A stretch of DNA of 64,000 nt from Candidatus Enterousia onthequi (GTDB taxonomy: Bacteria; Pseudomonadota; Alphaproteobacteria; Rs-D84), in the NCBI GenBank assembly GCA_018064365.1, contig JAGHVJ010000005.1:7982-71981 (forward strand), written 5' to 3'. A program made the translations under genes and the position numbers. Under the pieces are notes generated by a model. The model was not told the origin of the DNA. It ran no database searches and worked only from the letters and a program-made list of their open reading frames with translations. Shown here piece by piece: positions 6,006 through 21,079 of this stretch (within the stretch, counting starts at the first letter, position 1; each line of letters starts with the position of its first letter).

Positions 6006-6857
6006 ATGGATAAAGATAAGAAATTATCAGAACAACAAATAGAACAATTTAATGAGATAAGAAAAGAAATATTACGAAGGTTTAATCGTGTAAAAGCTTA
6101 TTCTCAATTTGATCCAAATGTTTTCCCAGTGAGCGCTCGGGCTTATTCTGAAATAAGTGAGGTTTTAGAGCCGCTTGTAGATGTGCTTAGACAAATAGAT
6201 TTAGAAAAATCTTATGACGATAAAAAATTGGAAAATTTTTTATTGGGGTGGAATAATTCTGCGAATGTTTTTTCTAAACATTATGATAAATTGCATGCCA
6301 AAGGTGTTTTGTATGAAGATGTTTGGGATGGTTTAAATGAATTGGATAGGGGGATAACAAATTTTATGCATGGCTTGGGTGTTTTTCAAGAGTATCAAGA
6401 AAAGAAAGAATTTTTAACAGAACAAGATAAAAATAAAAAAAAGCTGGAATTTGAAAAAGAAAAAACACAAGAATCTGACCCTGTGCAAAAATATGAAAAA
6501 GTAATTGCTGAATTGCGACACATTGATGAAATGGTTGATAGGCAACATAGTGATGAATCTTTTAAAAAAATGATGTTTGGATTAAAAGAACTGCGTGATA
6601 AAAAATTGCTGCCGGATAGATATGTTGAGGCATATAGGGCTATATTTAATGAAACGAAAAAGTGTCGTAATACAGAAAATGGTATATTGAGATTGTCTTC
6701 GGAAATAAATTGGCAAATACAAGAAATGCTTGATATAGACAGCAAAAAACAAAAGTTTGATGATGCAACTAAGGCTGTGCTTGATAAGGGACAAAGAAAA
6801 AATAAATTTTTTGAAGAAATGTTTGATAGAAACAAAATCAAAGGTCAGGATTTGTAA
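6006..6857 (+). CDS. Hypothetical Lys/Glu-rich, probably coiled-coil cytoplasmic protein (283 aa)
   Basis: Intact ORF with GGGGAG RBS. No signal peptide. Long charged heptad-like stretches. No family recognised. Confidence 0.6.
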   Translation: MDKDKKLSEQQIEQFNEIRKEILRRFNRVKAYSQFDPNVFPVSARAYSEISEVLEPLVDVLRQIDLEKSYDDKKLENFLLGWNNSANVFSKHYDKLHAKGVLYEDVWDGLNELDRGITNFMHGLGVFQEYQEKKEFLTEQDKNKKKLEFEKEKTQESDPVQKYEKVIAELRHIDEMVDRQHSDESFKKMMFGLKELRDKKLLPDRYVEAYRAIFNETKKCRNTENGILRLSSEINWQIQEMLDIDSKKQKFDDATKAVLDKGQRKNKFFEEMFDRNKIKGQDL

Positions 6858-6862
6858 TAATT

Positions 6863-7543
6863 ATGTTTACGGCGGATTGGTTTTGGCATCTGGATAAAAC
6901 TTTGCGAGAGCATGGTTTGGATTCGGATGCCATGTCTTTTGATGAAATACGCGCACGGTTGTCAAATCGTGAACGGTTGACTGGTGACGAATTTGCTTTT
7001 GAATGTGCGTATGTAATTTTGGCAGGCGGTTTTTCCCAAAAGACTGCAAAAAAAATTCATAAAATTATTTGTGAAAAATTAAAATCTGGTTGTTCAGATG
7101 TGGCAAGTTTGTTGCAAGTGTTTAATAACAAAAATAAAATAAATGCTATTTCTAAAATTTGGAATAATCGTGATGAATTATGTAATCTGTATTATTCACA
7201 GAAAACATTAGATGATAAATTGAATTTTATTGCGACTTTGCCACATATTGGAAAAATTACAGCAAATCATTTGGCGCGAAATTTGGGTGAAAATGTTGTT
7301 AAATATGATGTTTGGATTCAACGTTTGGGAATTGTGTTTGCACGACAAAAACAAAATTCATCTGTTTCGGTTTTTAATGTTGATAATAAAAAGTTAAGTC
7401 CACAAATAAAAAAATGTTGTGATGATATGTTTGATTGTTTGGCACAAGAAACAAATTTACCAATCGGATATATAGATGTTGTTTTATGGAAGTCTGCACA
7501 AAATGGTTTAATCGCGGAGGTGCAACATGGATGTGAAAATTGA
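6863..7543 (+). CDS. HhH-GPD superfamily DNA glycosylase-like protein (endonuclease III-like active-site spacing, no Fe-S cysteine motif seen)
   Basis: LPHIGKITANHLARNLGENVVKYDVWIQRLG parallels Nth LPGVGRKTANVVL...VDTHIFRV. The Lys and Asp are exactly 18 residues apart, as for K120/D138 of E. coli Nth. Overlaps the ung start by 17 nt. Confidence 0.55.
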   Translation: MFTADWFWHLDKTLREHGLDSDAMSFDEIRARLSNRERLTGDEFAFECAYVILAGGFSQKTAKKIHKIICEKLKSGCSDVASLLQVFNNKNKINAISKIWNNRDELCNLYYSQKTLDDKLNFIATLPHIGKITANHLARNLGENVVKYDVWIQRLGIVFARQKQNSSVSVFNVDNKKLSPQIKKCCDDMFDCLAQETNLPIGYIDVVLWKSAQNGLIAEVQHGCEN

Positions 7544-8200: not shown

Positions 8201-8776
8201 TTAGAAATTATGTGTTAAACCCAATCCGTAAAACGCATAAGAGTGGTTATCATCCGCAGTGTTTGCGTTTGAAAAATGTTGAACGAATAGTTCTGTTGCC
8301 CATTTTTTGTTGATGTTATACCCCAGCATTACCTTGAATTGGAATACCAATTTTGCACCCAGACGGGCGTTTTCTTTGGCCTGGAGTCCGGCACCCGCAC
8401 CCGCGCCCATATAAAAACGTTTGTATCGAAATAGGGCGATATCTTCGGTTGCATAACCAATTGGAATAGTGTAATCTTGCCATTTCCAACCGTATTTTTC
8501 ACCCAAACCCAATGTCAGTGAAGCGTTTAAATTTCTACGCGCAGGAATTCTGAAAAATGTTGTTGGTTGAGAATATGTGATTGTCCCGATGTAAAAAGGC
8601 ACAGGGCGCACGGGGGGCGGAAAAAGAATACCGGTATCAAAACCCTGGCCAAAACCAAAGGAAAATTGGTTTTGATATTTGCCCATAAACGGGTTAACTT
8701 CTGGTAAAAAACAAGAATCAGCAAAAGCCATTGTTGGTAATATTATTGGTAATAAAAATAATGTTTTTTTCATCAT
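8201..8776 (-). CDS. Outer-membrane acyloxyacyl hydrolase, lipid A deacylase PagL-like
   Basis: Signal peptide MMKKTLFLLPIILPTMAFA. Beta-barrel-like alternating sequence ending in F. HFSNA motif near the C-terminus, like the PagL His-x-Ser catalytic pair. Start trimmed to the MMKK at 8776. Confidence 0.55.
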   Translation of the reverse strand: MMKKTLFLLPIILPTMAFADSCFLPEVNPFMGKYQNQFSFGFGQGFDTGILFPPPVRPVPFYIGTITYSQPTTFFRIPARRNLNASLTLGLGEKYGWKWQDYTIPIGYATEDIALFRYKRFYMGAGAGAGLQAKENARLGAKLVFQFKVMLGYNINKKWATELFVQHFSNANTADDNHSYAFYGLGLTHNF

Positions 8777-8841
8777 ACGAGCAATAATATCATATTTTGT
8801 GTGTAAAAACAAACGGAATAAATATGTTTTTTTGCAATTGC

Positions 8842-9067: not shown

Positions 9068-9391
9068 ATGGTGTCGAGATATGATTCTAATTTTATAGAA
9101 AAACAAACAAAACAAATAAATGGTATATTGGATAATTATCAAAAATCTATGCCATTGGGGTTGGTTGACGAGTTTAAAAAGTTGCGCCCAAAAATTTTGG
9201 AAAAATTGTTGGTACATTATCCAATGGATGTTTTCGAACAGCCTGAAAAATTATGTCGTGATATAGAAATCTTGATTGTTGTTATAGCGTATGATACGGC
9301 GCAGATTACACGGTTCAAGAAACAAAGTGAAATTTTAAAACAAATTCATAAATTTGCGTTGGAACAAGTGCAAAAAAATTTGAGAAAATAA
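9068..9391 (+). CDS. Hypothetical protein (107 aa)
   Basis: Intact ORF with AGGGGG RBS 5-6 nt upstream of the ATG. No family recognised. Confidence 0.5.
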   Translation: MVSRYDSNFIEKQTKQINGILDNYQKSMPLGLVDEFKKLRPKILEKLLVHYPMDVFEQPEKLCRDIEILIVVIAYDTAQITRFKKQSEILKQIHKFALEQVQKNLRK

Positions 9392-9410
9392 GTTTTTTAC
9401 CGAGTTCTGA

Positions 9411-9484
9411 TGGTGCCCTAAGCAAGAATCGGACTTGCGACTCGTCCTTACCAAGGACGTGTTTTACCACTAGACTATTAGGGC
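9411..9484 (-). tRNA. tRNA-Thr (anticodon GGU), CCA encoded
   Basis: Manual cloverleaf on the reverse complement. Acceptor GCCCTAA/TTAGGGC. D-loop AGTGGTA. Anticodon stem CGTCC/GGACG with loop TTGGTAA. T-arm GCAAG-TCCGATT-CTTGC. Discriminator A, then CCA. Confidence 0.9.
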
Positions 9485-9542
9485 AACTGGGGCTATTATA
9501 TCGGGTTTGCTGTAAAAAGCAACAAAAAACGATTAAAAATAA

Positions 9543-9570
9543 TTGCAATTAAAAAAAACTCTGTTATAAT
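9543..9570 (+). promoter_or_regulatory. Sigma70-like promoter for the CAU tRNA
   Basis: TTGCAA (9543-9548), 16 nt spacer, TATAAT (9565-9570). The tRNA 5' end lies 11 nt downstream. Confidence 0.55.
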
Positions 9571-9580
9571 GCGTTCACTT

Positions 9581-9657
9581 GGCGGGATAGCTCAGCTGGT
9601 TAGAGCAGTGGAATCATAATCCACGTGTCGGGGGTCCGAGTCCCTCTCCCGCTACCA
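9581..9657 (+). tRNA. tRNA with CAU anticodon (elongator Met or lysidine-type Ile2, not initiator), CCA encoded
   Basis: Acceptor GGCGGGA/TCCCGCT (G1-U72 wobble). D-arm GCTC-AGCTGGTTA-GAGC. Anticodon stem GTGGA/TCCAC with loop ATCATAA. T-arm GGGGG-TCCGAGT-CCCTC. Lacks the initiator-specific 1:72 mismatch and the three G-C pairs in the anticodon stem. Confidence 0.9.
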
Positions 9658-9664
9658 AGATAAT

Positions 9665-9687
9665 GACCGATTTTGTCGGTCTTTTTT
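9665..9687 (+). terminator. Intrinsic terminator after the tRNA
   Basis: GACCGA-TTTTG-TCGGTC followed by TTTTTT. Confidence 0.7.
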
Positions 9688-9703
9688 GTTTTATAAATAA
9701 ATG

Positions 9704-9732
9704 TTGAAAGTTTTGTTTTTGGGGTATAAAAT
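9704..9732 (+). promoter_or_regulatory. Candidate promoter of the aspS leader
   Basis: TTGAAA (9704-9709), 17 nt spacer, TAAAAT (9727-9732). This would start the transcript ~10 nt before Stem I of the T-box. Confidence 0.45.
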
Positions 9733-9751
9733 ACTCTTGTTTGATTTAAAT

Positions 9752-9913
9752 CGTGTGATGATACGACTGACAACCGTGGAGCGCGTTTTGGGTCTGGCCA
9801 AAAGTAAAAAAGCAGGGTGGCACCGCGCGAAAAAATCTTAGCGCCCCTGGATTTTAAGATTGAAATCGGTGCCGGAAAATTCAATTAAAGCACCGAAATT
9901 AAATAACAAGGTG
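9752..9913 (+). promoter_or_regulatory. T-box riboswitch (tRNA-Asp sensing) controlling aspS
   Basis: GGGTGGCACCGCG at 9815-9827 is embedded in a canonical antiterminator: A1 9813-9817/9845-9849, bulge UGGCACC, A2 9825-9828/9841-9844. Upstream is a K-turn-like stem at 9752-9785 with GAC in its apical loop. Lies directly upstream of an aminoacyl-tRNA synthetase gene. Confidence 0.8.
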
Positions 9914-9920
9914 TTAAAAA

Positions 9921-11699
9921 ATGTTATCTTTGAAATCTAAATACAGAACTCATACTTGTGGTGAGTTGAATATCAGCAATGTTGGCGAAGTCGTGACATT
10001 GTCTGGTTGGGTACATCGTAAACGCGATCACGGGTCGTTGTTGTTTGTGGACTTGCGTGATAATTATGGTATTACACAATGTGTGTTTGATGGGGGCGAT
10101 GAAAATCTGGAAAAAATTCGTCCGGAATCAGTGGTGCAAATCACAGGTCGTGTTGTCGCGCGTGAAGTAGAGGCGATAAACGATAAAATCCCAACAGGTC
10201 ATATTGAAATCCAGGCTTCGGCAAGTGATGTTAAAATTTTAACTAATTCCGAAGTGTTGCCTTTCCAAGTGTTTGGCGATGAAGAAACATCCGAAGAATT
10301 GCGTTATAAATATCGTTTCTTGGATTTGCGTCGTGAAAAATTACATCACAGTATTTTAATGCGCAATAAAATGATGAAATGGTTGCGTGATAAAATGTGG
10401 GATTTGGGTTTTTCAGAATTTCAAACTCCGCTTCTTACTGCGGATTCACCCGAAGGTGCGCGTAGTTTCTTGGTGCCATCACGTTTGCATCATGGTAAAT
10501 TTTATGCGTTGCCCCAAGCACCACAAATGTTTAAACAATTGTTGCAAGTGTCTGGGTTTGACCGTTATTTCCAAATTGCGCCATGTTTTCGTGATGAAGA
10601 TTTGCGTGCGGATAGATTGTTGGAATTTTACCAATTAGATATGGAAATGTCTTTTGTAGATGTGTCTGATATTCAGGCCGTTGGTGAAGAAATTATGCCG
10701 GAAATGGTTAAAACTTTTGCACCTGATGCAAATGTGTATCTAGCAATTCCGCATATATCTTATGATGATGCAATGTTGAAATACGGGTGCGATAAACCGG
10801 ATTTGCGTAATCCTATTTTAATCAGTGATGTGACGGAAATTTTCCGTGGTTCTGAATTTGGGATTTTTGCAAATGCAATTGAAAACGGCAGTGTTGTGCG
10901 TGCTGTGCCGGCACCAAATACCGCAGACCGTCCACGTTCTTGGTATGATAAATTGGTCGAATATGCGGTTAAAGAATTAGGTTTAGGCGGATTGGGGTAT
11001 ATCATTTTTGCCGATGAAGCCAAAGGGCCTGTCGCTAAGAAATTGGATACGGCGCGTATTGAAAAATTGCATGAAATTGCAGGGGACAATTCTTCGTTGT
11101 TCTTTATATGTGATAATGTTGAAAATGCAGCACGTGCAGCGGGCAAATTGCGTAATAAATTAGGTGCAGATTTAGGATTGGTAAATCCACGTGATTTCGC
11201 GTTTTGTTGGGTCGATAATTTCCCGTTCTTTGAACCGGATGAAGACCGCGCAGGTGCGCCAAAATTTACGCATAATCCTTTTTCGTATCCGATTGTGGAT
11301 TCTGTGGAAGAATTATCAACACGCGACCCATTTTCTATCAAGGCGGCACAGTTCGATATGGTGTTGAATGGTCTTGAAATTTGTAGTGGTGGTTTGCGTA
11401 ATTATAATCCAGAGATTATGAAAAAATGTTTCGAAATTGCTGGATATCCATTAGAGGCGGTCGAGAAAAACTTTTCTGGATTATATACTGCGTTTCAATA
11501 TGGTGCGCCACCGCATGGTGGATGTGCGTTTGGTATTGAACGTGTGGTGTCTGAAATTTTGGGCAATGGTGACAGTGTTCGTGAAATCGTTGCGTTCCCT
11601 GCAAATCAACGTGGTCAAGATTTGTTGATGGGATCTCCGAACGATGTTTCTGAACAACAGTTGCGTGATGTTCATATTCAGATTCGCAAGAAAAACTAA
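9921..11699 (+). CDS. aspS: Aspartate--tRNA ligase (bacterial type, 592 aa)
   Basis: N-terminal OB fold (RTHTCGELN...GWVHRKRDHGSLLFVDLRD). Class II motifs FQIAPCFRDEDLRADR and GGCAFGIERV. Bacterial insertion domain present. Confidence 0.97.
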   Translation: MLSLKSKYRTHTCGELNISNVGEVVTLSGWVHRKRDHGSLLFVDLRDNYGITQCVFDGGDENLEKIRPESVVQITGRVVAREVEAINDKIPTGHIEIQASASDVKILTNSEVLPFQVFGDEETSEELRYKYRFLDLRREKLHHSILMRNKMMKWLRDKMWDLGFSEFQTPLLTADSPEGARSFLVPSRLHHGKFYALPQAPQMFKQLLQVSGFDRYFQIAPCFRDEDLRADRLLEFYQLDMEMSFVDVSDIQAVGEEIMPEMVKTFAPDANVYLAIPHISYDDAMLKYGCDKPDLRNPILISDVTEIFRGSEFGIFANAIENGSVVRAVPAPNTADRPRSWYDKLVEYAVKELGLGGLGYIIFADEAKGPVAKKLDTARIEKLHEIAGDNSSLFFICDNVENAARAAGKLRNKLGADLGLVNPRDFAFCWVDNFPFFEPDEDRAGAPKFTHNPFSYPIVDSVEELSTRDPFSIKAAQFDMVLNGLEICSGGLRNYNPEIMKKCFEIAGYPLEAVEKNFSGLYTAFQYGAPPHGGCAFGIERVVSEILGNGDSVREIVAFPANQRGQDLLMGSPNDVSEQQLRDVHIQIRKKN

Positions 11700-11747: not shown

Positions 11748-14222
11748 TTAATATTTTTCGTGGCTTCTGGTAAATGCGCGCATATATCCAATGTCCAGAT
11801 TGTTGATAATGTCTGTGATTGAATATCTGCGTCGGCCAGATTCGTTTATTGTCATTTCAACAGATGCAGGTTTTGGTGCGGTTCCACGCAATACGAATTC
11901 AAATGTTCCGGTCATAACACGGTTGTTTATAAATAATGCACCAACACCTTCGACATGTGGCATTGATATTGTCAAAGGTCTGGATGTTTCAAAGTTTCCG
12001 TTGTTATATATGCCTGAAATTTTTAATTTCTTTAATCTGGTTTTTCCAGATTCCAGTGCTGCGCCAAGTATGTATTCGGCGTTTAATATTGTTAAATTAT
12101 CTGCATTACTGTAAAACGCATCAAATCCAATTCCAGATATTGTGCCACCTGTAAATGTTGCGTCTATATCGCCAGATAGATTATAAATTAAATCGTTTGC
12201 GGTTTGACCAGATGTGTGTAATTTTATTTCTGCGGTAATGTTAGAATCGCTGATGTTTAATGGTGTGTCAAAGTTTAACAATTCATTAAACATTTGGAAT
12301 TTGTTTAATTGGATTGATATGTCATAATCAAATTTTTTCTTTTCTATGATACTTAACATATTACCACGATTTGTGTCAGATATGGAAAATATTTGGGTGT
12401 CTGGCTTTAATGAATACACAAAGTTTCTGTATATTGTGTCGTTCAAAATCATTGTGTCTGCGGATAAAGATATGTTTATTGGCAAATCAAACAATGTTGC
12501 AATTGGGTGATTTGTTAAAAATTTCATTTCTTCATAATTTTCTGTAAATATTGGGTTGATGAAATTATCAAGGTTTAAAACTTTTGTGTCCAGTGTTAAA
12601 CCAGATTTTGTTGCAACACCAGATAATATTTGGTCGCCAATCATTATGTTTAAATCACTGATTGTGTCGTTGTTAAATGTTCCTGATATTGCGTATCCCA
12701 TATCGTTCAAGAATCGTAAATCAATTCTGGGTAACCATTGTTTGAAATTTATGCCTGTGATTGTGAAATTGTTTTCGTTTATTTCTAATGTCCACTGTTT
12801 ATTTTGTGGGATAAATGTTTTTTTGTTGTTTTTATGCGTATATGTGCCGGGTTGATTAAACATAAAATCTGGTAAAAATTTTATGTCTATATTTAACTCT
12901 TTCAAAGTCATATCGTTTGCATAATTGAATTTTGGTAATATTTGTTTTGGGGTTATAACTAAATTTCCAGACATATCTGAAAATGTAAAATCTATGGTGC
13001 CATTTTCACCAATTCTGGAAACTAATTTCCTGATGGTTTTTAATGATGGCATTTTGTCTGTTGATGTTGCTGTTATGTGAAATATGCCGTTGTCTGATGT
13101 GATTTCGCCAGTAATGTCATTATAGTTAAAGTTTTTGCATTCCCATTTTTGTGGTGTGCCAGAAAAAATACAACTGAATTTTTCGTTTTTGTTGTTTATT
13201 TGTAATCTTGTGTTGTGGACACCGTTGTTGTCGTATGTGCCATCGAATAATTCGATGTTATCCATTATAACATGTTTTAATTCCAGTTTGTTGTTGTTGC
13301 CCAAAGCATTTAATTTCAAATTTGAAAACATATTGTCTTTGAATTTTATTTTCCCAGATAAATCAAGTGTGATACTGGTGTTATTTAACATGGTTTTATC
13401 GGTTGCGATAAAAGATATATCCATGTTCGCATTAGATGATGCAAAGTTTATATATTTAAATCCGTCGGGTAATAATTTTATTGAGCCTGTATAATTATTT
13501 GCATTTATATTTGTGAAATCAAATCCGTATTCGCCATCCCAATTAAATTCCATGGATAAAGATACGGGTTCATTGATTTTTGGATTTTCAAATTCAAACC
13601 ATTTGTTTATGTCGGGAGTGTTTATTGACATTTCGCCTGCTGCGCCACCATCAGGAAATAATGTTCCGCGTATGTGCAAATTATCATTACTGTTTATAAC
13701 AATAAATTCTCCGTTGTCATAGTTTAATTCGTATTTATGTTGTGGGGTACGAATTTGACCAGAAAATTTATTGTTTGATAAAGTTCCCCGAACAATTTTA
13801 TATTCGTGATTCATAAAATCCAGTTCTGTATTATATATGTTTATGTTGTGTGATACAGGTCGAGGAAATAATTCTGTGATTTTGATATTTCCGTTATAAA
13901 TATCCAAATCTGGGTTTAATTTTGCATCTTTGAGATTGAATATTTGTTTAAAAGGGACAGAAAAAGAAACCCTGTCAATTTTGCCAGTTGGAATTTCAAC
14001 ATCGTGCGCAACAATTGTACTGGTCCCCAATAAACTGAAATTTACATTGCCGTTGATTTTTGTTGTCCAACCGGTTTGTTCTTGGATTTTGGCCTGTAAT
14101 ACAGGTTTCATTTTGTTCAGGTTTAACAATGGCGGAATACATAATATCCCGATTACACTAAGTCCCAGAAATACAACGATTGTCCAAAATAAACGGCGTT
14201 TGTGTCTTGGTTTGATTTTCAT
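11748..14222 (-). CDS. AsmA-family outer-membrane biogenesis protein (824 aa)
   Basis: N-terminal basic stretch plus a single TM (RRLFWTIVVFLGLSVIGILCIPPLL), then a long beta-rich Asn/Thr-rich periplasmic region. Architecture is typical of AsmA/TamB-like proteins. The family call is by architecture. Confidence 0.7.
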   Translation of the reverse strand: MKIKPRHKRRLFWTIVVFLGLSVIGILCIPPLLNLNKMKPVLQAKIQEQTGWTTKINGNVNFSLLGTSTIVAHDVEIPTGKIDRVSFSVPFKQIFNLKDAKLNPDLDIYNGNIKITELFPRPVSHNINIYNTELDFMNHEYKIVRGTLSNNKFSGQIRTPQHKYELNYDNGEFIVINSNDNLHIRGTLFPDGGAAGEMSINTPDINKWFEFENPKINEPVSLSMEFNWDGEYGFDFTNINANNYTGSIKLLPDGFKYINFASSNANMDISFIATDKTMLNNTSITLDLSGKIKFKDNMFSNLKLNALGNNNKLELKHVIMDNIELFDGTYDNNGVHNTRLQINNKNEKFSCIFSGTPQKWECKNFNYNDITGEITSDNGIFHITATSTDKMPSLKTIRKLVSRIGENGTIDFTFSDMSGNLVITPKQILPKFNYANDMTLKELNIDIKFLPDFMFNQPGTYTHKNNKKTFIPQNKQWTLEINENNFTITGINFKQWLPRIDLRFLNDMGYAISGTFNNDTISDLNIMIGDQILSGVATKSGLTLDTKVLNLDNFINPIFTENYEEMKFLTNHPIATLFDLPINISLSADTMILNDTIYRNFVYSLKPDTQIFSISDTNRGNMLSIIEKKKFDYDISIQLNKFQMFNELLNFDTPLNISDSNITAEIKLHTSGQTANDLIYNLSGDIDATFTGGTISGIGFDAFYSNADNLTILNAEYILGAALESGKTRLKKLKISGIYNNGNFETSRPLTISMPHVEGVGALFINNRVMTGTFEFVLRGTAPKPASVEMTINESGRRRYSITDIINNLDIGYMRAFTRSHEKY

Positions 14223-16975: not shown

Positions 16976-17935
16976 TTGTCTAAAAAGCATATGTTTTTGA
17001 ACGTTTTTTCAAAAATCACACTTTTTGCGTGTGTGTTTTGTGCGTTTTTTATTTCGCCCGTGTTCGCCAGTTTGCCAGCCGGTTATACAGAATTAGAATA
17101 TATCGAATCCAGTGGAACACAGTATATCGATACGGGGATTGTTATAAATTCTTCTAATATTTCAAATGTAAAGTTAGAGTTGATAAATGCCTGTGCAGGT
17201 AATAATTCTGGAAGTATCAGTGGTATATCAAACAACAATATAAAACTGTGGCAAGGACTAACGGCTGTTGGCGCAGGTAGTGCTGATGCGGTGATATATT
17301 ACAGTACAGGGAATTCAGAAAACGGCATAAGTAAAAAAACAGCAAGAACCGATTTTTATAAGTATGTTATAGATACAGCAAACGGAATTTGGGGTATGTA
17401 TAATTTGGACAATTCGGTTGTTTATGAGAAGAACGATATTGTATTTTCAACCACAGAAACTGGTAATACAAAATACGGGTTGTTCGGATTTTACAGGGAC
17501 GCGTATTTCAGTACATCATCTTATGCTCAGAAAATATCATCATTTAAGGCAACGGTAGGTGGAACATTAGTAATTGATTTAATCCCTGCCAGGCGCAATT
17601 CAGATAATGTAGTTGGTATGTATGATTTGGTTTCTAATACATTCAAAAACAATTCAGGCTCTGGTTCGTTTATTGCTGGGCCGGTGGCGGAAATCAAAAT
17701 TGCTACAACAAAAATGGTTGATGAAGAATTTGCGGCGGCGGAGGCAAAATTAGCAACAACTGTTCAAACGATTGAAAGTGTTGTATCACGCACGATTGCT
17801 CAGACCGGACAGATTCAGATATTACAAGATACAAAACAAACCCGTCCTGATGAATCGTGTCCTGCAAATATGAAATGTTTACTTGTTCAAGATGAAGACG
17901 GCACACCGCATTGGTACCCCATCATCGAACCATAA
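16976..17935 (+). CDS. Secreted protein of a paralogous family (conserved signal peptide/N-terminus and C-terminal 80 aa, variable centre), copy 1, 319 aa
   Basis: TTG start after a GGGAGAG RBS. Signal peptide ...SPVFA/S. LPAGYTELEYIESSGTQYIDTG motif. C-terminus nearly identical to the 51367-52392 product. Confidence 0.8.
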   Translation: MSKKHMFLNVFSKITLFACVFCAFFISPVFASLPAGYTELEYIESSGTQYIDTGIVINSSNISNVKLELINACAGNNSGSISGISNNNIKLWQGLTAVGAGSADAVIYYSTGNSENGISKKTARTDFYKYVIDTANGIWGMYNLDNSVVYEKNDIVFSTTETGNTKYGLFGFYRDAYFSTSSYAQKISSFKATVGGTLVIDLIPARRNSDNVVGMYDLVSNTFKNNSGSGSFIAGPVAEIKIATTKMVDEEFAAAEAKLATTVQTIESVVSRTIAQTGQIQILQDTKQTRPDESCPANMKCLLVQDEDGTPHWYPIIEP

Positions 17936-18820: not shown

Positions 18821-21079
18821 TTATCCATTATTGTTTCCTGGAACGTATATATAACCACCAGAATTGCTTCTTTTGTTATTTTGTATTTGTTTGTTCAAAT
18901 CATTAATACCCTTGGCAATCCCATTAAAACATGTTTCTACATTATTTGTACTAATTGATTTACAGTTATCGGTATATTTGCTGTCCAATAAAGTTTTCAA
19001 AACTGTTGAATCTGCGGTCAATTGTTTTTTTACATTGTTTTTCAAATTCTTTTTTGTGACATATGGTTGTAATTTAGAATAATTTGAACGCAAGCATGAT
19101 AATGCTGTTTCTTCATCGATTGGGCTGCATGTGTCAAACTCTACCTTGTCTGTGGATTGGTCATCGTCGGATGATGTGCCGCCGGCAACCTGGACAGATG
19201 CCTTTAATACTTCTTTTTCCAACATGACCTTTAATTGTTTAATCATTTGTTCCAGTGTTGCGTATTGTTTATACATTTGTTGTGCAATCACTGTTGTTTT
19301 CAATGCGATGATTTCGTTCATTTTTTCGCGGTCTTCGGATTTTGTTATTTCGTCATTCTTTGTAAATCCCGCGTTCCATGCGTGCGTATCACACAGTGCA
19401 AATACCGGATCAACATAAGAAATATCTATATCCAAATCATAACATGATGATTTGCATTTTTCGGAATCTGTGCCAGGTACATTTTCACAACATGCACCTT
19501 TATCTTTGGCATCTTGGCCCAATGCCTTGGAAACGGTTGCGGCTTTTAATTTATTAATCGCATTTTCTTTGGTGGTATCAAAACCCAATCCACACATTTG
19601 TGCCGCATCATTTGCACATGAGTTGTTGTTTGTAGTTACTATTATATCTGTGCAGTTGGATTTATGTTTTAATGAGCCCTCGGTTTGATTTAACAAAATT
19701 TCCAACAAATCGATATCGATGCCGGATTTATTTTTACTGCTGCTGCGGCGACGGCGAATAAGGCCGTTGTTGATACTGTCGCTGGCACAACCGATACGCA
19801 CAGAACCCGTGGATGATGCGTCGGGATTTAAGATTTTTTCTTGGATTGCGCCATCGTTTGGGTCCAGGTATTTATTCGGTGTGCATGCAATCAAATCTTC
19901 GGGTGGAATAACATTTCCTTCATAACAATCGTGTCCTCCACGAGTGATACCATTATTTTTGCTGGATTTATGTGTGTCTTTTATGCAATTATCTTCATAT
20001 TTATATGTTGGTAAACCGGATTCACATTTTCTGCTTTCTCCTTCGCCAGTGCATTTTTCAGCATAATTCCCGCGGCAAACGTATTCAGCCCAGCGGTTGC
20101 AAGAGCCACTGAAAAACATATAAATATTACCCAAATCGACACCGACCGATTGTGCGGTGAACAATGCGTCGTCCAGGTTGTCCGCCAATGCGTCGTATGG
20201 TTCCATAAATTTGTTTGCCAATTCGCGGAATTTTGCAACACGTTTTGGGGCACTGCAATTATTTCCATTGACCTCGTTACATTTGGCATAGCGGAACGCG
20301 TCACGCATTGTTGTTTTCAAATTATTCAAACTTTGGTCGACGCCTTCCATACTGGTTAAAATTTGTCCCGTTATTGTTGCACGCGCAATCACATCATCCG
20401 ATACACCCGATTTTGCCGCCGCTTCTTGCGCAGCCGTCAAACCAGTTCCCGGATTAGCCTGGACTGCCTGCGCTTGTACCTGTGCCGACGCCGCAGCCGC
20501 AGCCGCAGAAATTGCATCTTGGTTACTGCGTTGAGATTCCGCCAACTGTTGTTGCAAAGAATCTATTTGTGCGCTGTTTTGTTGTTGCATGGATGCCATT
20601 TGTTGCTGCATCGATTGTAATTGTTGTTGCAACGCCGCATTATTTTGTTCCGCCGCCGCGGTGGCTGCCGCCGCGTTTGCCGCCGCCGCATTTTGTGCCG
20701 CGATTGAATCAGATACCAATTGTGCCGCGATTGCGTTTATTAAATCGTCACCGTGTTTTTTGCATGTTGCATTTGAATTTACACATCCCGCAACAATCGG
20801 TTTTGCAATATCCATATTTGCACAACCGCCACCCGAACATTTGGGCGACGCACATCGCAAAATCAAAGAATTACAATTTCCAAAATCTGCCGTAGCCTTG
20901 GGCGACGCCGCATTATTACGCGGATTTGTTGCGTTGTTCCACTGATTACCAACCACCGACCCCATAGAACCATTATATTGGGTTAAATTACTGCCCGCGG
21001 TTTGCGCAATGGGTGCCGCCGCAACCGCAAATGGCGCGCATAAAAACAAAGTCGAAAAAATTTTAATGAACGTTCTCAA
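18821..21079 (-). CDS. Large secreted Cys-rich protein with an Ala/Gln-rich coiled-coil-like region (752 aa), function unknown
   Basis: Signal peptide MRTFIKIFSTLFLCAPFAVAAAP. About 40 Cys scattered through it. AAQNAAAANAAAATAAAEQNNAALQQQLQSMQQQMASMQQQ low-complexity block. No family recognised. Confidence 0.8.
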   Translation of the reverse strand: MRTFIKIFSTLFLCAPFAVAAAPIAQTAGSNLTQYNGSMGSVVGNQWNNATNPRNNAASPKATADFGNCNSLILRCASPKCSGGGCANMDIAKPIVAGCVNSNATCKKHGDDLINAIAAQLVSDSIAAQNAAAANAAAATAAAEQNNAALQQQLQSMQQQMASMQQQNSAQIDSLQQQLAESQRSNQDAISAAAAAASAQVQAQAVQANPGTGLTAAQEAAAKSGVSDDVIARATITGQILTSMEGVDQSLNNLKTTMRDAFRYAKCNEVNGNNCSAPKRVAKFRELANKFMEPYDALADNLDDALFTAQSVGVDLGNIYMFFSGSCNRWAEYVCRGNYAEKCTGEGESRKCESGLPTYKYEDNCIKDTHKSSKNNGITRGGHDCYEGNVIPPEDLIACTPNKYLDPNDGAIQEKILNPDASSTGSVRIGCASDSINNGLIRRRRSSSKNKSGIDIDLLEILLNQTEGSLKHKSNCTDIIVTTNNNSCANDAAQMCGLGFDTTKENAINKLKAATVSKALGQDAKDKGACCENVPGTDSEKCKSSCYDLDIDISYVDPVFALCDTHAWNAGFTKNDEITKSEDREKMNEIIALKTTVIAQQMYKQYATLEQMIKQLKVMLEKEVLKASVQVAGGTSSDDDQSTDKVEFDTCSPIDEETALSCLRSNYSKLQPYVTKKNLKNNVKKQLTADSTVLKTLLDSKYTDNCKSISTNNVETCFNGIAKGINDLNKQIQNNKRSNSGGYIYVPGNNNG

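Follow-up and report, generated by a model that had tools for sequence, protein, structure and literature searches.

A minimal T-box leader of aspS in uncultured Alphaproteobacteria with a candidate four-element relay for translational control

How could a T-box leader that has no terminator to switch control the gene behind it? The question is raised by the leader of aspS, the aspartate--tRNA ligase gene, in a stretch of 64,000 nucleotides (nt) of Candidatus Enterousia onthequi DNA (Alphaproteobacteria; contig JAGHVJ010000005.1, positions 7,982-71,981), here called the window, in the coordinates of which all positions are given. T-boxes are regarded as a Gram-positive device. The proteobacterial representatives in early surveys were only two deltaproteobacterial leuA leaders, those of Geobacter and Pelobacter (PMC2494555), and translational T-boxes are known essentially as the leaders of actinobacterial ileS genes (PMC7778990). 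An initial annotation of the window proposed that the aspS leader controls translation through four short complementary elements, the last of which is the Shine-Dalgarno (SD) sequence. Having followed up this proposal by comparative and thermodynamic analysis, we favour, with a probability of roughly 0.6, the reading that a minimal T-box makes up the leader (approximately 9740-9920), responding to uncharged tRNA-Asp and governing the initiation of translation via a four-element relay.

That this is a genuine T-box-type leader we hold with high confidence. The T-box 14-mer AGGGUGGCACCGCG is exact at 9814-9827, where the conserved T-box sequence of T-box riboswitches, AGGGUGGNACCGCG, is matched exactly, and GGGTGGCACCGCGC was found in 91 of the 91 leaders collected. 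The motif lies upstream of aspS in 11 of the 11 closest genomes (AspS identity of at least 73%) and is absent from the 69 other loci fetched, which came from more distant Alphaproteobacteria and others; a metagenome scan with the linker and the T-box returned 79 loci, mostly from rumen or gut. From the close genomes and the scan, 71 distinct leaders of gut and rumen Alphaproteobacteria were obtained, nearly all of them in front of aspS; 64 of the 71 were treated as relay-type, and 68 aptamers were aligned for an alifold consensus. The gene and the parts of the aptamer in the window are as follows.

9921-11699, + strand: aspS, aspartate--tRNA ligase of 592 amino acids (NCBIfam aspS equivalog, 707 bits), the gene under predicted control.
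9752-9785, + strand: ultrashort Stem I, from reading of the sequence, RNAfold on the nascent prefix and covariation in the alifold of 68 homologues.
9752-9756 (CGUGU) with 9781-9785 (GCGCG), + strand: C-stem of Stem I, with 4-6 pair types per pair in the 68-homologue alifold.
9757-9759 (bulge GAU) and sheared GA 9760-9761 against GA 9779-9780, + strand: predicted kink-turn (K-turn) of Stem I, from the sequence pattern; the flanking stems covary.
9762-9765 (UACG) with 9775-9778 (CGUG), + strand: 4-base-pair (bp) stem of Stem I, with homologue pairs GC/AU/GU and UA/CG in the alifold.
9766-9774, + strand: apical specifier loop of 9 nt, ACUGACAAC, from reading of the sequence and RNAfold on the nascent prefix.
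9769-9772, + strand: specifier codon GAC (Asp) and the conserved purine A that follows it, from the sequence and the identity of the downstream gene, aspS.
9786-9803, + strand: hairpin UUUUGG-GUCUGG-CCAAAA between Stem I and the T-box, from the minimum free energy (MFE) structure; specific to the window.
9802-9810, + strand: conserved single-stranded linker AAGUNAUAA, in the window form AAGUAAAAA; anchor of the metagenome scan.
9813-9849, + strand: antiterminator/antisequestrator, from the Rfam alignment, with a hairpin energy of -11.0 kcal/mol.
9813-9817 with 9845-9849, + strand: helix A1, the outer pairs of which covary (CG/UA/UG and AU/CG/GC/GU).
9818-9824, + strand: antiterminator bulge UGGCACC, 7 nt, from the Rfam alignment.
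9825-9828 with 9841-9844, + strand: helix A2, the apical pairs of which covary.

Helices A1 and A2 are retained in 68 of the 68 aptamers, and covariation is abundant in the C-stem and the short stem of Stem I, in the outer part of A1 and in the apical part of A2. Stem II, the IIA/B pseudoknot and a conserved Stem III are all missing from this consensus: from Stem I to the T-box there is no conserved helix, only approximately 20-28 A-rich nt, in which the linker AAGUNAUAA is invariant. The distal platform of Stem I for the tRNA elbow (AG bulge plus distal loop) is absent as well, Stem I measuring only about 34 nt, the aptamer about 100 nt and the whole leader switch about 170 nt. The K-turn is predicted from the sequence pattern C-stem, GAU, GA ... 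GA, C-stem, and the linker AAGUNAUAA is probably the equivalent of the RAG linker motif of known T-boxes. The hairpin at 9786-9803, which may be a Stem III-like element, is absent from the 68-aptamer consensus; in many relatives, a GGG...CCC helix encloses Stem I in its place.

At the gathering threshold, Rfam reports no T-box here, only two tRNAs. With a permissive threshold, RF00230 matches 9695-9851 at 26.1 bits (E = 4e-4; gathering score 93), with the confident columns of the alignment all within the T-box 14-mer and the antiterminator, and a search with a permissive E-value brought up nothing credible beside the T-box that overlaps the leader. The low score is explained by the reduction of Stem I to about 34 nt; the relatives score similarly low (31-33 bits) and, therefore, this leader family is invisible to standard annotation.

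A UGGC bulge expects G73 in the tRNA, and bacterial tRNA-Asp and tRNA-Asn carry G73. By established T-box principles, the bulge is expected to pair with the GCCA 3' end of tRNA-Asp (PMC7778990), and we infer that the leader binds the tRNA in its uncharged form. A gene for tRNA-Asp or tRNA-Asn was found neither in the window nor in 60 related loci. Among the 70 unique aptamers, approximately 47 have GAC as the specifier and approximately 17 have AAC (Asn), and the specifier is never anything else, the bulge staying UGGC throughout; the Asn-type leaders are those of loci L003, L089, L097, L102, L104, L108, L110, L111, L117, L119, L131, L135, L136, L141, L146, L152 and L155. This switching between GAC and AAC in front of orthologous aspS genes suggests that some lineages may tune an aspartyl-tRNA synthetase (AspRS) of the non-discriminating kind to tRNA-Asn charging. 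Attenuation by a leader peptide was rejected: the AUG in the K-turn opens a 27-codon open reading frame (ORF) in the window, but in relatives UGA directly follows the same AUG.

The four elements that the initial annotation listed (GGCACCG 9819-9825, CGGTGCC 9867-9873, GCACCG 9890-9895 and GGTG 9910-9913) are all correct in the sequence. With their flanks, they can be described as follows.

9818-9825, + strand: element 1, the bulge UGGCACC plus G9825; the full stretch pairs with element 2 over 8 bp at -14.8 kcal/mol.
9867-9874, + strand: element 2, CGGUGCCG, the cis complement of the bulge, a mimic of the acceptor end or of the SD and the proposed anti-anti-SD.
9889-9896, + strand: element 3, AGCACCGA, the proposed anti-SD, which pairs with element 2 or with the SD.
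9908-9915, + strand: element 4, the SD region AAGGUGUU, with GGUG at 9910-9913, 7 nt to the ATG at 9921; paired in the full-leader MFE structure.

Under the proposed mechanism, the apical loop of the K-turn Stem I would present GAC-A to the anticodon of tRNA-Asp, and the UGGC bulge of the antiterminator-type helix would pair with the GCCA end of the tRNA. By default (OFF), the seven nucleotides of the bulge would pair with element 2 (GGUGCCG), and element 3 (AGCACC), thus freed, would pair with the SD (GGUGUU) and block initiation. When uncharged tRNA fills the bulge and stabilises A1 and A2 (ON), elements 2 and 3 would form a hairpin with each other and the SD would be released.

The complementarity on which the proposed capture of the bulge by element 2 depends is strongly conserved. 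A full 7/7 complement of the bulge (GGUGCCR) lies downstream in 65 of the 71 leaders, as against 1.1% of shuffled leaders. Across the entire window, GGTGCCR occurs 14 times on the + strand and 10 times on the - strand, a frequency at which one copy in a leader of approximately 95 nt would be a chance event of only a few percent. Element 2 reads GGUGCC in 60 of the 64 relay-type leaders, with an entropy of 0-0.12 bits in the core, and its variants (GGUGUC, GGUGCU and GGUGCCU) keep six or seven of the pairs with the bulge. The partner bases in element 3 drift (C/U opposite G, G/A opposite U) while the core of element 2 is fixed, which fits a constraint from a second, invariant partner. In the relay-type leaders, the bulge is indeed invariant and the 7/7 match to it strongly conserved; covariation between the two is impossible because the T-box side never varies. 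The duplex of element 2 with the bulge has a mean energy of -14.0 kcal/mol, compared with -10.7 kcal/mol for that with the 3' strand of the antiterminator. Pairing with this 3' strand, the classical topology, was considered for the window and set aside as possible but weaker (-8.6 versus -14.8 kcal/mol). The two-state relay of the initial annotation is supported by comparative and thermodynamic evidence with one point corrected, namely, that the partner of element 2 is the tRNA-binding bulge and not the antiterminator 3' strand used by classical T-boxes. In vivo, the bulge would be captured by element 2 whenever the tRNA does not occupy it.

The second step, the helix between elements 2 and 3, shows clear covariation. 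In the window, 9866-9872 pairs with 9890-9896 over 7 bp (hairpin energy -10.0 kcal/mol), and RNAduplex recovers the helix, with energies from -7 to -19 kcal/mol, in each of the 64 relay-type leaders. The helix is 86% paired when 53 leaders are aligned with MAFFT, and both of its sides have changed in 33 cells; the covariation score of 0.331 was reached in none of 500 shuffles, and slid registers gave at most 0.139. The third helix, between element 3 and the SD, joins AGCACC at 9889-9894 to GGUGUU at 9910-9915 in the window (6 bp, hairpin energy -6.6 kcal/mol) and is likewise possible, with energies from -5 to -12 kcal/mol, in 64/64 relay-type leaders. The sequences of element 3 and of the SD region fall into matched types: GRCACY with GGUGU, UUGGU[R]CCC with GGGACCAA (the core of this second type being GGU[R]CCC paired to GGGACC), and UCGCC with GGCGA. 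Over all leaders, cognate pairs of element 3 and SD have a mean energy of -8.46 kcal/mol compared with -7.35 kcal/mol for non-cognate pairs (0 of 5000 permutations; z = -4.2), and -4.78 kcal/mol when element 3 is shuffled. The repeated CACCG/CGGTG elements to which the initial annotation had drawn attention are, then, conserved in the orthologous leaders, in the form of a nearly constant element 2, a covarying 2:3 helix and an element 3 and SD that change together. A dispersed GC-rich hairpin repeat, AUCCC[AC]C...G[UG]GGGAC, sits exactly between element 3 and the SD in approximately 10 leaders (L095, L104/L105/L158, L110, L122, L124, L126, L129, L138, L142 with two copies, and L090); it occurs elsewhere in these genomes (L011:186; L087:6238, - strand) and is not found in the window. 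The loop of the proposed 3:SD helix apparently tolerates insertions such as this repeat.

A simpler arrangement is seen in the direct-type leaders L121 and L088/L153, in which elements 2 and 3 are missing and GGUGCCG or GGUGUCA, at a distance of 10-11 nt from the ATG, serves as the SD. These SDs are fully complementary to the bulge, with T-box duplexes of -13.1 kcal/mol (L121) and -11.3 kcal/mol (L088). The direct type looks like a two-element form of the relay logic with the same regulatory sign, and as such it supports the relay independently. Leaders of the window type repeat the bulge sequence exactly in element 3 (UGGCACCG), which suggests that the relay may have been born by duplication of a direct bulge/SD pair. 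The module is also reused: in L115, L128 and L154, which stem from metagenomes of sludge type and others, this aptamer stands together with a strong relay (element 3 UGCACC, SD GGUGCA) in front of a gene of the Peptidase_S51 family (L154:664-1500), that is, the aspartyl-dipeptidase/cyanophycinase family.

The alternative helices are thermodynamically mutually exclusive. The stretch that begins at the T-box and ends shortly after the start codon was folded in two constrained states: as a proxy for ON, the antiterminator was enforced and the bulge blocked, as by bound tRNA, and for OFF, the pairing of the bulge with element 2 was enforced. In the ON state, a mean of 7.6 bp of the 2:3 helix and 0.6 bp of the 3:SD helix form, and in the OFF state, 0 bp and 7.0 bp, respectively. 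The unpaired fraction of the SD core, averaged over the 64 leaders, is 0.39 ON versus 0.15 OFF, with ON exceeding OFF in 56 of 64 (Wilcoxon p = 1.6e-9); in the window, it is 0.49 ON and 0.01 OFF, and the free ensemble, also at 0.01, equals OFF. Folding therefore predicts the sequestration of the SD that the initial annotation had envisaged. The OFF state of the window lies at -28.0 kcal/mol and the ON state at -24.1 kcal/mol, and it is plausible that the gap of approximately 3.9 kcal/mol could be paid by tRNA binding. Folds of nascent prefixes of the window pass from the antiterminator to 1:2, then to the antiterminator plus 2:3, and then to 1:2 plus 3:SD, one flip per added element. The MFE z-score of the leader, -0.45, is unremarkable.

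Several observations weigh against this reading. The step from element 3 to the SD is the weakest link of the relay: the preference for cognate partners loses its significance once the leaders are reduced to 22 clusters at 80% identity (z = -1.5, p = 0.07), and the alignment-based count for this helix, 0.272 versus at most 0.22 in slid controls, is only a modest excess. Part of the 3:SD signal arises because the SD region resembles element 2 (GGGACCAAAA versus GGGUGCCAAAA). In the ON fold of the window, the margin of the 2:3 state over the 3:SD state is small, about 0.9 kcal/mol, and the SD can pair weakly with codons 2-3. When the whole leader was first folded with RNAfold and the SD was defined broadly (-14 to -5), ON and OFF hardly differed (0.43 versus 0.43 in the window), because of the A-rich flanks and a spurious upstream pairing of element 2; this analysis was replaced by folding of the sub-domain with the SD-core measure. 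Five short leaders (L009, L091, L103, L106 and L118) have the aptamer and lack elements 2 and 3, their SDs, GGGACCA or GGGUCCA, matching the bulge at only 5 of 7 positions, and in relatives of the GGGACC type, the free ensemble favours another OFF fold, in which the 5' half of the T-box pairs with the start-codon region and CCC with GGG. A T-box without Stem II and the elbow platform is expected to bind tRNA weakly (PMC7583486). Finally, all the evidence is computational. The 3:SD helix may be strong enough to repress, perhaps with secondary effects of Rho or of decay.

The alternative OFF fold is the basis of the explanation that survives best next to the relay, although we consider it unlikely. 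The strands of the opened antiterminator would clamp the initiation region directly, the 5' half of the T-box (GGUGGCA) pairing with the AUG-proximal UGUUAUC and the 3' strand of A1 (CCCU) with the AGG(G) of the SD, and the 2:3 hairpin, formed constitutively, would serve as a spacer to bring the parts close to each other. Such a clamp is the MFE structure in each of the five short leaders without elements 2 and 3 and dominates the free ensemble of the GGGACC-type leaders, where 0.53 of the 7 bp between the T-box and the start region and 0.70 of the 3 bp of CCC:GGG are formed; for the short leaders and for many of the GGGACC type, it is a serious competitor of the relay. The duplex of the T-box with the start region, at a mean of -6.06 kcal/mol versus -4.35 kcal/mol when shuffled, is better than shuffled in 59 of 71 leaders, and the N-terminal extension MLSLKSK of AspS, which UGUUAUC helps to encode, is specific to the clade. 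However, the clamp is negligible in the window (0.03-0.05) and in other GGUGU-type leaders (0-0.13); the SD of the window is without GGG, and its pairing with the A1 3' strand is negligible. Moreover, many of the pairs in the clamp helix are G-U, the multiloop that it closes is large, and the clamp leaves unexplained both the invariant GCCR end of element 2 and its 7/7 match to the bulge.

The relay, like the clamp, would act on initiation of translation, and that the leader as a whole does so is, in our judgement, probable. A consensus scan of 9300-10300 found terminator-like sites only at 9443, at 9665 (behind the tRNA-Met gene) and at 10024 (inside aspS), with none from the antiterminator to the ATG; when the same criteria are applied to the 71 leaders, 2 of them show such a site in the stretch from the T-box to the ATG. 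Because this rule, which requires perfect stems, missed both complete classical-terminator controls, it was replaced by a hairpin-energy scan. The controls, L120 and L144, share the linker and the T-box but have classical terminators, and the energy scan detected them at -30 and -24 kcal/mol; L148, too, apparently has a classical terminator, its record ending after the hairpin. In the 71 aspS leaders, the energy scan found long-range folds only, mostly with weak or interrupted U stretches, the best at -18 kcal/mol and 16 of 71 at or below -8 kcal/mol. The initial statement that no GC hairpin with a U-tract follows the antiterminator is confirmed. Transcriptional control of a less canonical kind, in which the choice between the antiterminator and the bulge:element 2 pairing decides over Rho-dependent or other non-canonical termination, or a pause, within the A/U-rich leader and the SD pairing is secondary, appears improbable, somewhat more so than the clamp. 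The leader is indeed long and A/U-rich, U runs are located just 5' of element 3 in many relatives, and translational riboswitches in Proteobacteria are often coupled to Rho. Nevertheless, no hairpin with an adjacent U tract was found in the leader; the U runs form the inner part of the 3' strand in the 2:3 helix, paired with an A run after element 2, and are not terminator tails. In composition, being rich in A and poor in C, the leader does not resemble a Rho utilisation site, and the direct-type relatives put the complement of the bulge exactly on the SD.

Least probable of all is that the leader is a degenerate relic, a T-box that has decayed beyond tRNA binding with the loss of Stem II, Stem III and the elbow platform and is now constitutive, its downstream elements serving as a stabilising or processing hairpin: the Rfam score (26 bits versus a gathering score of 93) and the absence of domains held essential for tRNA affinity in other T-boxes (PMC7583486, PMC11297988) would agree with such decay, but the 14-mer, the bulge, the K-turn, the specifier loop and the linker are conserved over 70 distinct leaders, with compensatory changes, the specifier is restricted to GAC or AAC, and the module has been reused before the aspartyl-dipeptidase-like gene.

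The reduced T-box with a relay that we favour resembles several known systems in part. In the known translational ileS T-boxes, short variants of Stem I are combined with the obligatory Stem II and IIA/B, a Stem III and also an antisequestrator (PMC7583486, PMC7778990, PMC11297988, PMC12647780), and with a truncated Stem I alone, without Stem II, tRNA binding is barely detectable (PMC7583486). Like these actinobacterial leaders (class II; Mycobacterium, Nocardia), the aspS leader belongs to a synthetase gene, senses tRNA and has no terminator (PMC7583486, PMC7778990). The two also have in common a short Stem I with the specifier in the apical loop, the absence of an elbow platform, a UGGN antisequestrator bulge and an output, predicted in the present case, by exposure of the SD. 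Unlike the ileS leaders, the aspS leader is devoid of Stem II and the IIA/B pseudoknot and, in most members, of Stem III; its specifier is Asp or Asn, not Ile, and the hosts are Alphaproteobacteria. The switch strand, too, would differ, being the NCCA-binding bulge, with two extra elements to relay the signal. In the ileS class, the anti-SD is said to lie inside the tRNA-stabilised helix, as reportedly described by Sherwood et al. in 2015.

The glyQS T-boxes share with the aspS leader the absence of the Stem II domain (PMC7583486). Unlike the aspS leader, glyQS keeps a long Stem I with an interdigitated T-loop platform, Stem III and an intrinsic terminator, acts on transcription and relies on a strong GGC:GCC codon-anticodon pair. 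With the class I T-box (RF00230), the leader has in common the T-box 14-mer, the A1/bulge/A2 antiterminator, the basal K-turn of Stem I and a specifier followed by a purine; in contrast to class I, the side-bulge for the specifier, the AG bulge, the distal loop, Stem II and the terminator are all missing, and the competing downstream strand targets the bulge, on the 5' side, rather than the 3' strand of the antiterminator. In translational riboswitches of the thiM type (Escherichia coli thiamine pyrophosphate (TPP) switch), an aptamer strand, an anti-anti-SD, an anti-SD and the SD are arranged in series, and the ligand decides the partner of each element. The proposed aspS relay is likewise a chain of alternative helices, with the differences that the ligand is the 3' end of a tRNA and not a metabolite, that it switches the gene on, the opposite sign, and that elements 2 and 3 (GGUGCC and GGCACC) look as if copied from the SD and the T-box bulge. 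In the full-text literature, which was covered in part, we found no description of an alphaproteobacterial T-box, of a T-box for Asp or Asn, or of a translational T-box that lacks both Stem II and Stem III. Most likely, the four-element relay has not been described for the T-box family, the logic itself being familiar from metabolite riboswitches.

A broader generalization can be offered only tentatively, at somewhat less than even odds: these leaders might constitute an unrecognised class of minimal T-boxes, confined to uncultured Alphaproteobacteria of gut and rumen, in which the NCCA-binding bulge is the switch strand, a GGUGCCR mimic competes with the tRNA's 3' end, the output is either direct, with the SD as the mimic, or goes through a duplicated mimic/anti-mimic pair, and tRNA-Asp or tRNA-Asn is read on aspS.

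The surroundings of the leader are in part shared with the relatives. AspS of the window is 85-88% identical to the proteins of uncultured Alphaproteobacteria known from metagenome-assembled genomes (sheep, goat and cattle gut) and approximately 50-55% identical to those of Rickettsiales, Pelagibacterales and other Alphaproteobacteria; the extension MLSLKSK is absent from other Alphaproteobacteria. The codons of this extension (UGUUAUC; 9921-9941 in the window) are complementary, with G-U pairs, to the 5' half of the T-box, GGUGGCA (9816-9822). Upstream, one further feature can be listed.

9704-9732, + strand: sigma-70-like promoter, TTGAAA, 17 nt, TAAAAT, a consensus match only (10 of 12 positions).

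The leader transcript is predicted to start near position 9740. In many relatives (L086, L105, L154, L158, L128 and others), the T-box is immediately preceded, at approximately 70-250 nt, by a gene for tRNA-Thr(GGU) in the same orientation, which suggests that there the tRNA and the T-box leader may be co-transcribed. In the window, the tRNA-Thr(GGU) gene is inverted (9411-9484, - strand), and the leader is preceded by a tRNA-Met(CAU) gene (9581-9657, + strand) with its own terminator-like hairpin (9665-9690). An antisense ORF at 9600-9884 (- strand) was rejected as spurious because it overlaps the tRNA-Met gene. The identifiable neighbours of aspS are gyrB, ung and uvrB; five ORFs nearby, at 11748-14222 (-), 18821-21079 (-), 6006-7543 (+), 8201-8812 (-) and 16976-17935 (+), had no NCBIfam match at E <= 1e-10, with products of 824 and 752 amino acids among them. 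Over the whole window (1-64000; G+C 36-41%), the GC skew is positive in all 4-kb bins (0.04-0.35), and, therefore, the entire 64 kb lies on one replichore with an unusually strong strand asymmetry.

Rfam-based annotation overlooks this entire family of leaders (26-33 bits against a gathering score of 93). If the leader is functional, it would extend the T-box mechanism to Alphaproteobacteria and would be the smallest natural tRNA-sensing aptamer so far, which bears on the need for Stem II, Stem III and the elbow platform. It would also add a new logic of the expression platform, namely, competition between the 3' end of a tRNA and a mimic in cis, in a switch of approximately 170 nt that is compact enough for in vitro tests and for use as a sensor of tRNA charging. 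Furthermore, the switch between GAC and AAC specifiers would then be a natural experiment on the tuning of the expression of non-discriminating AspRS.

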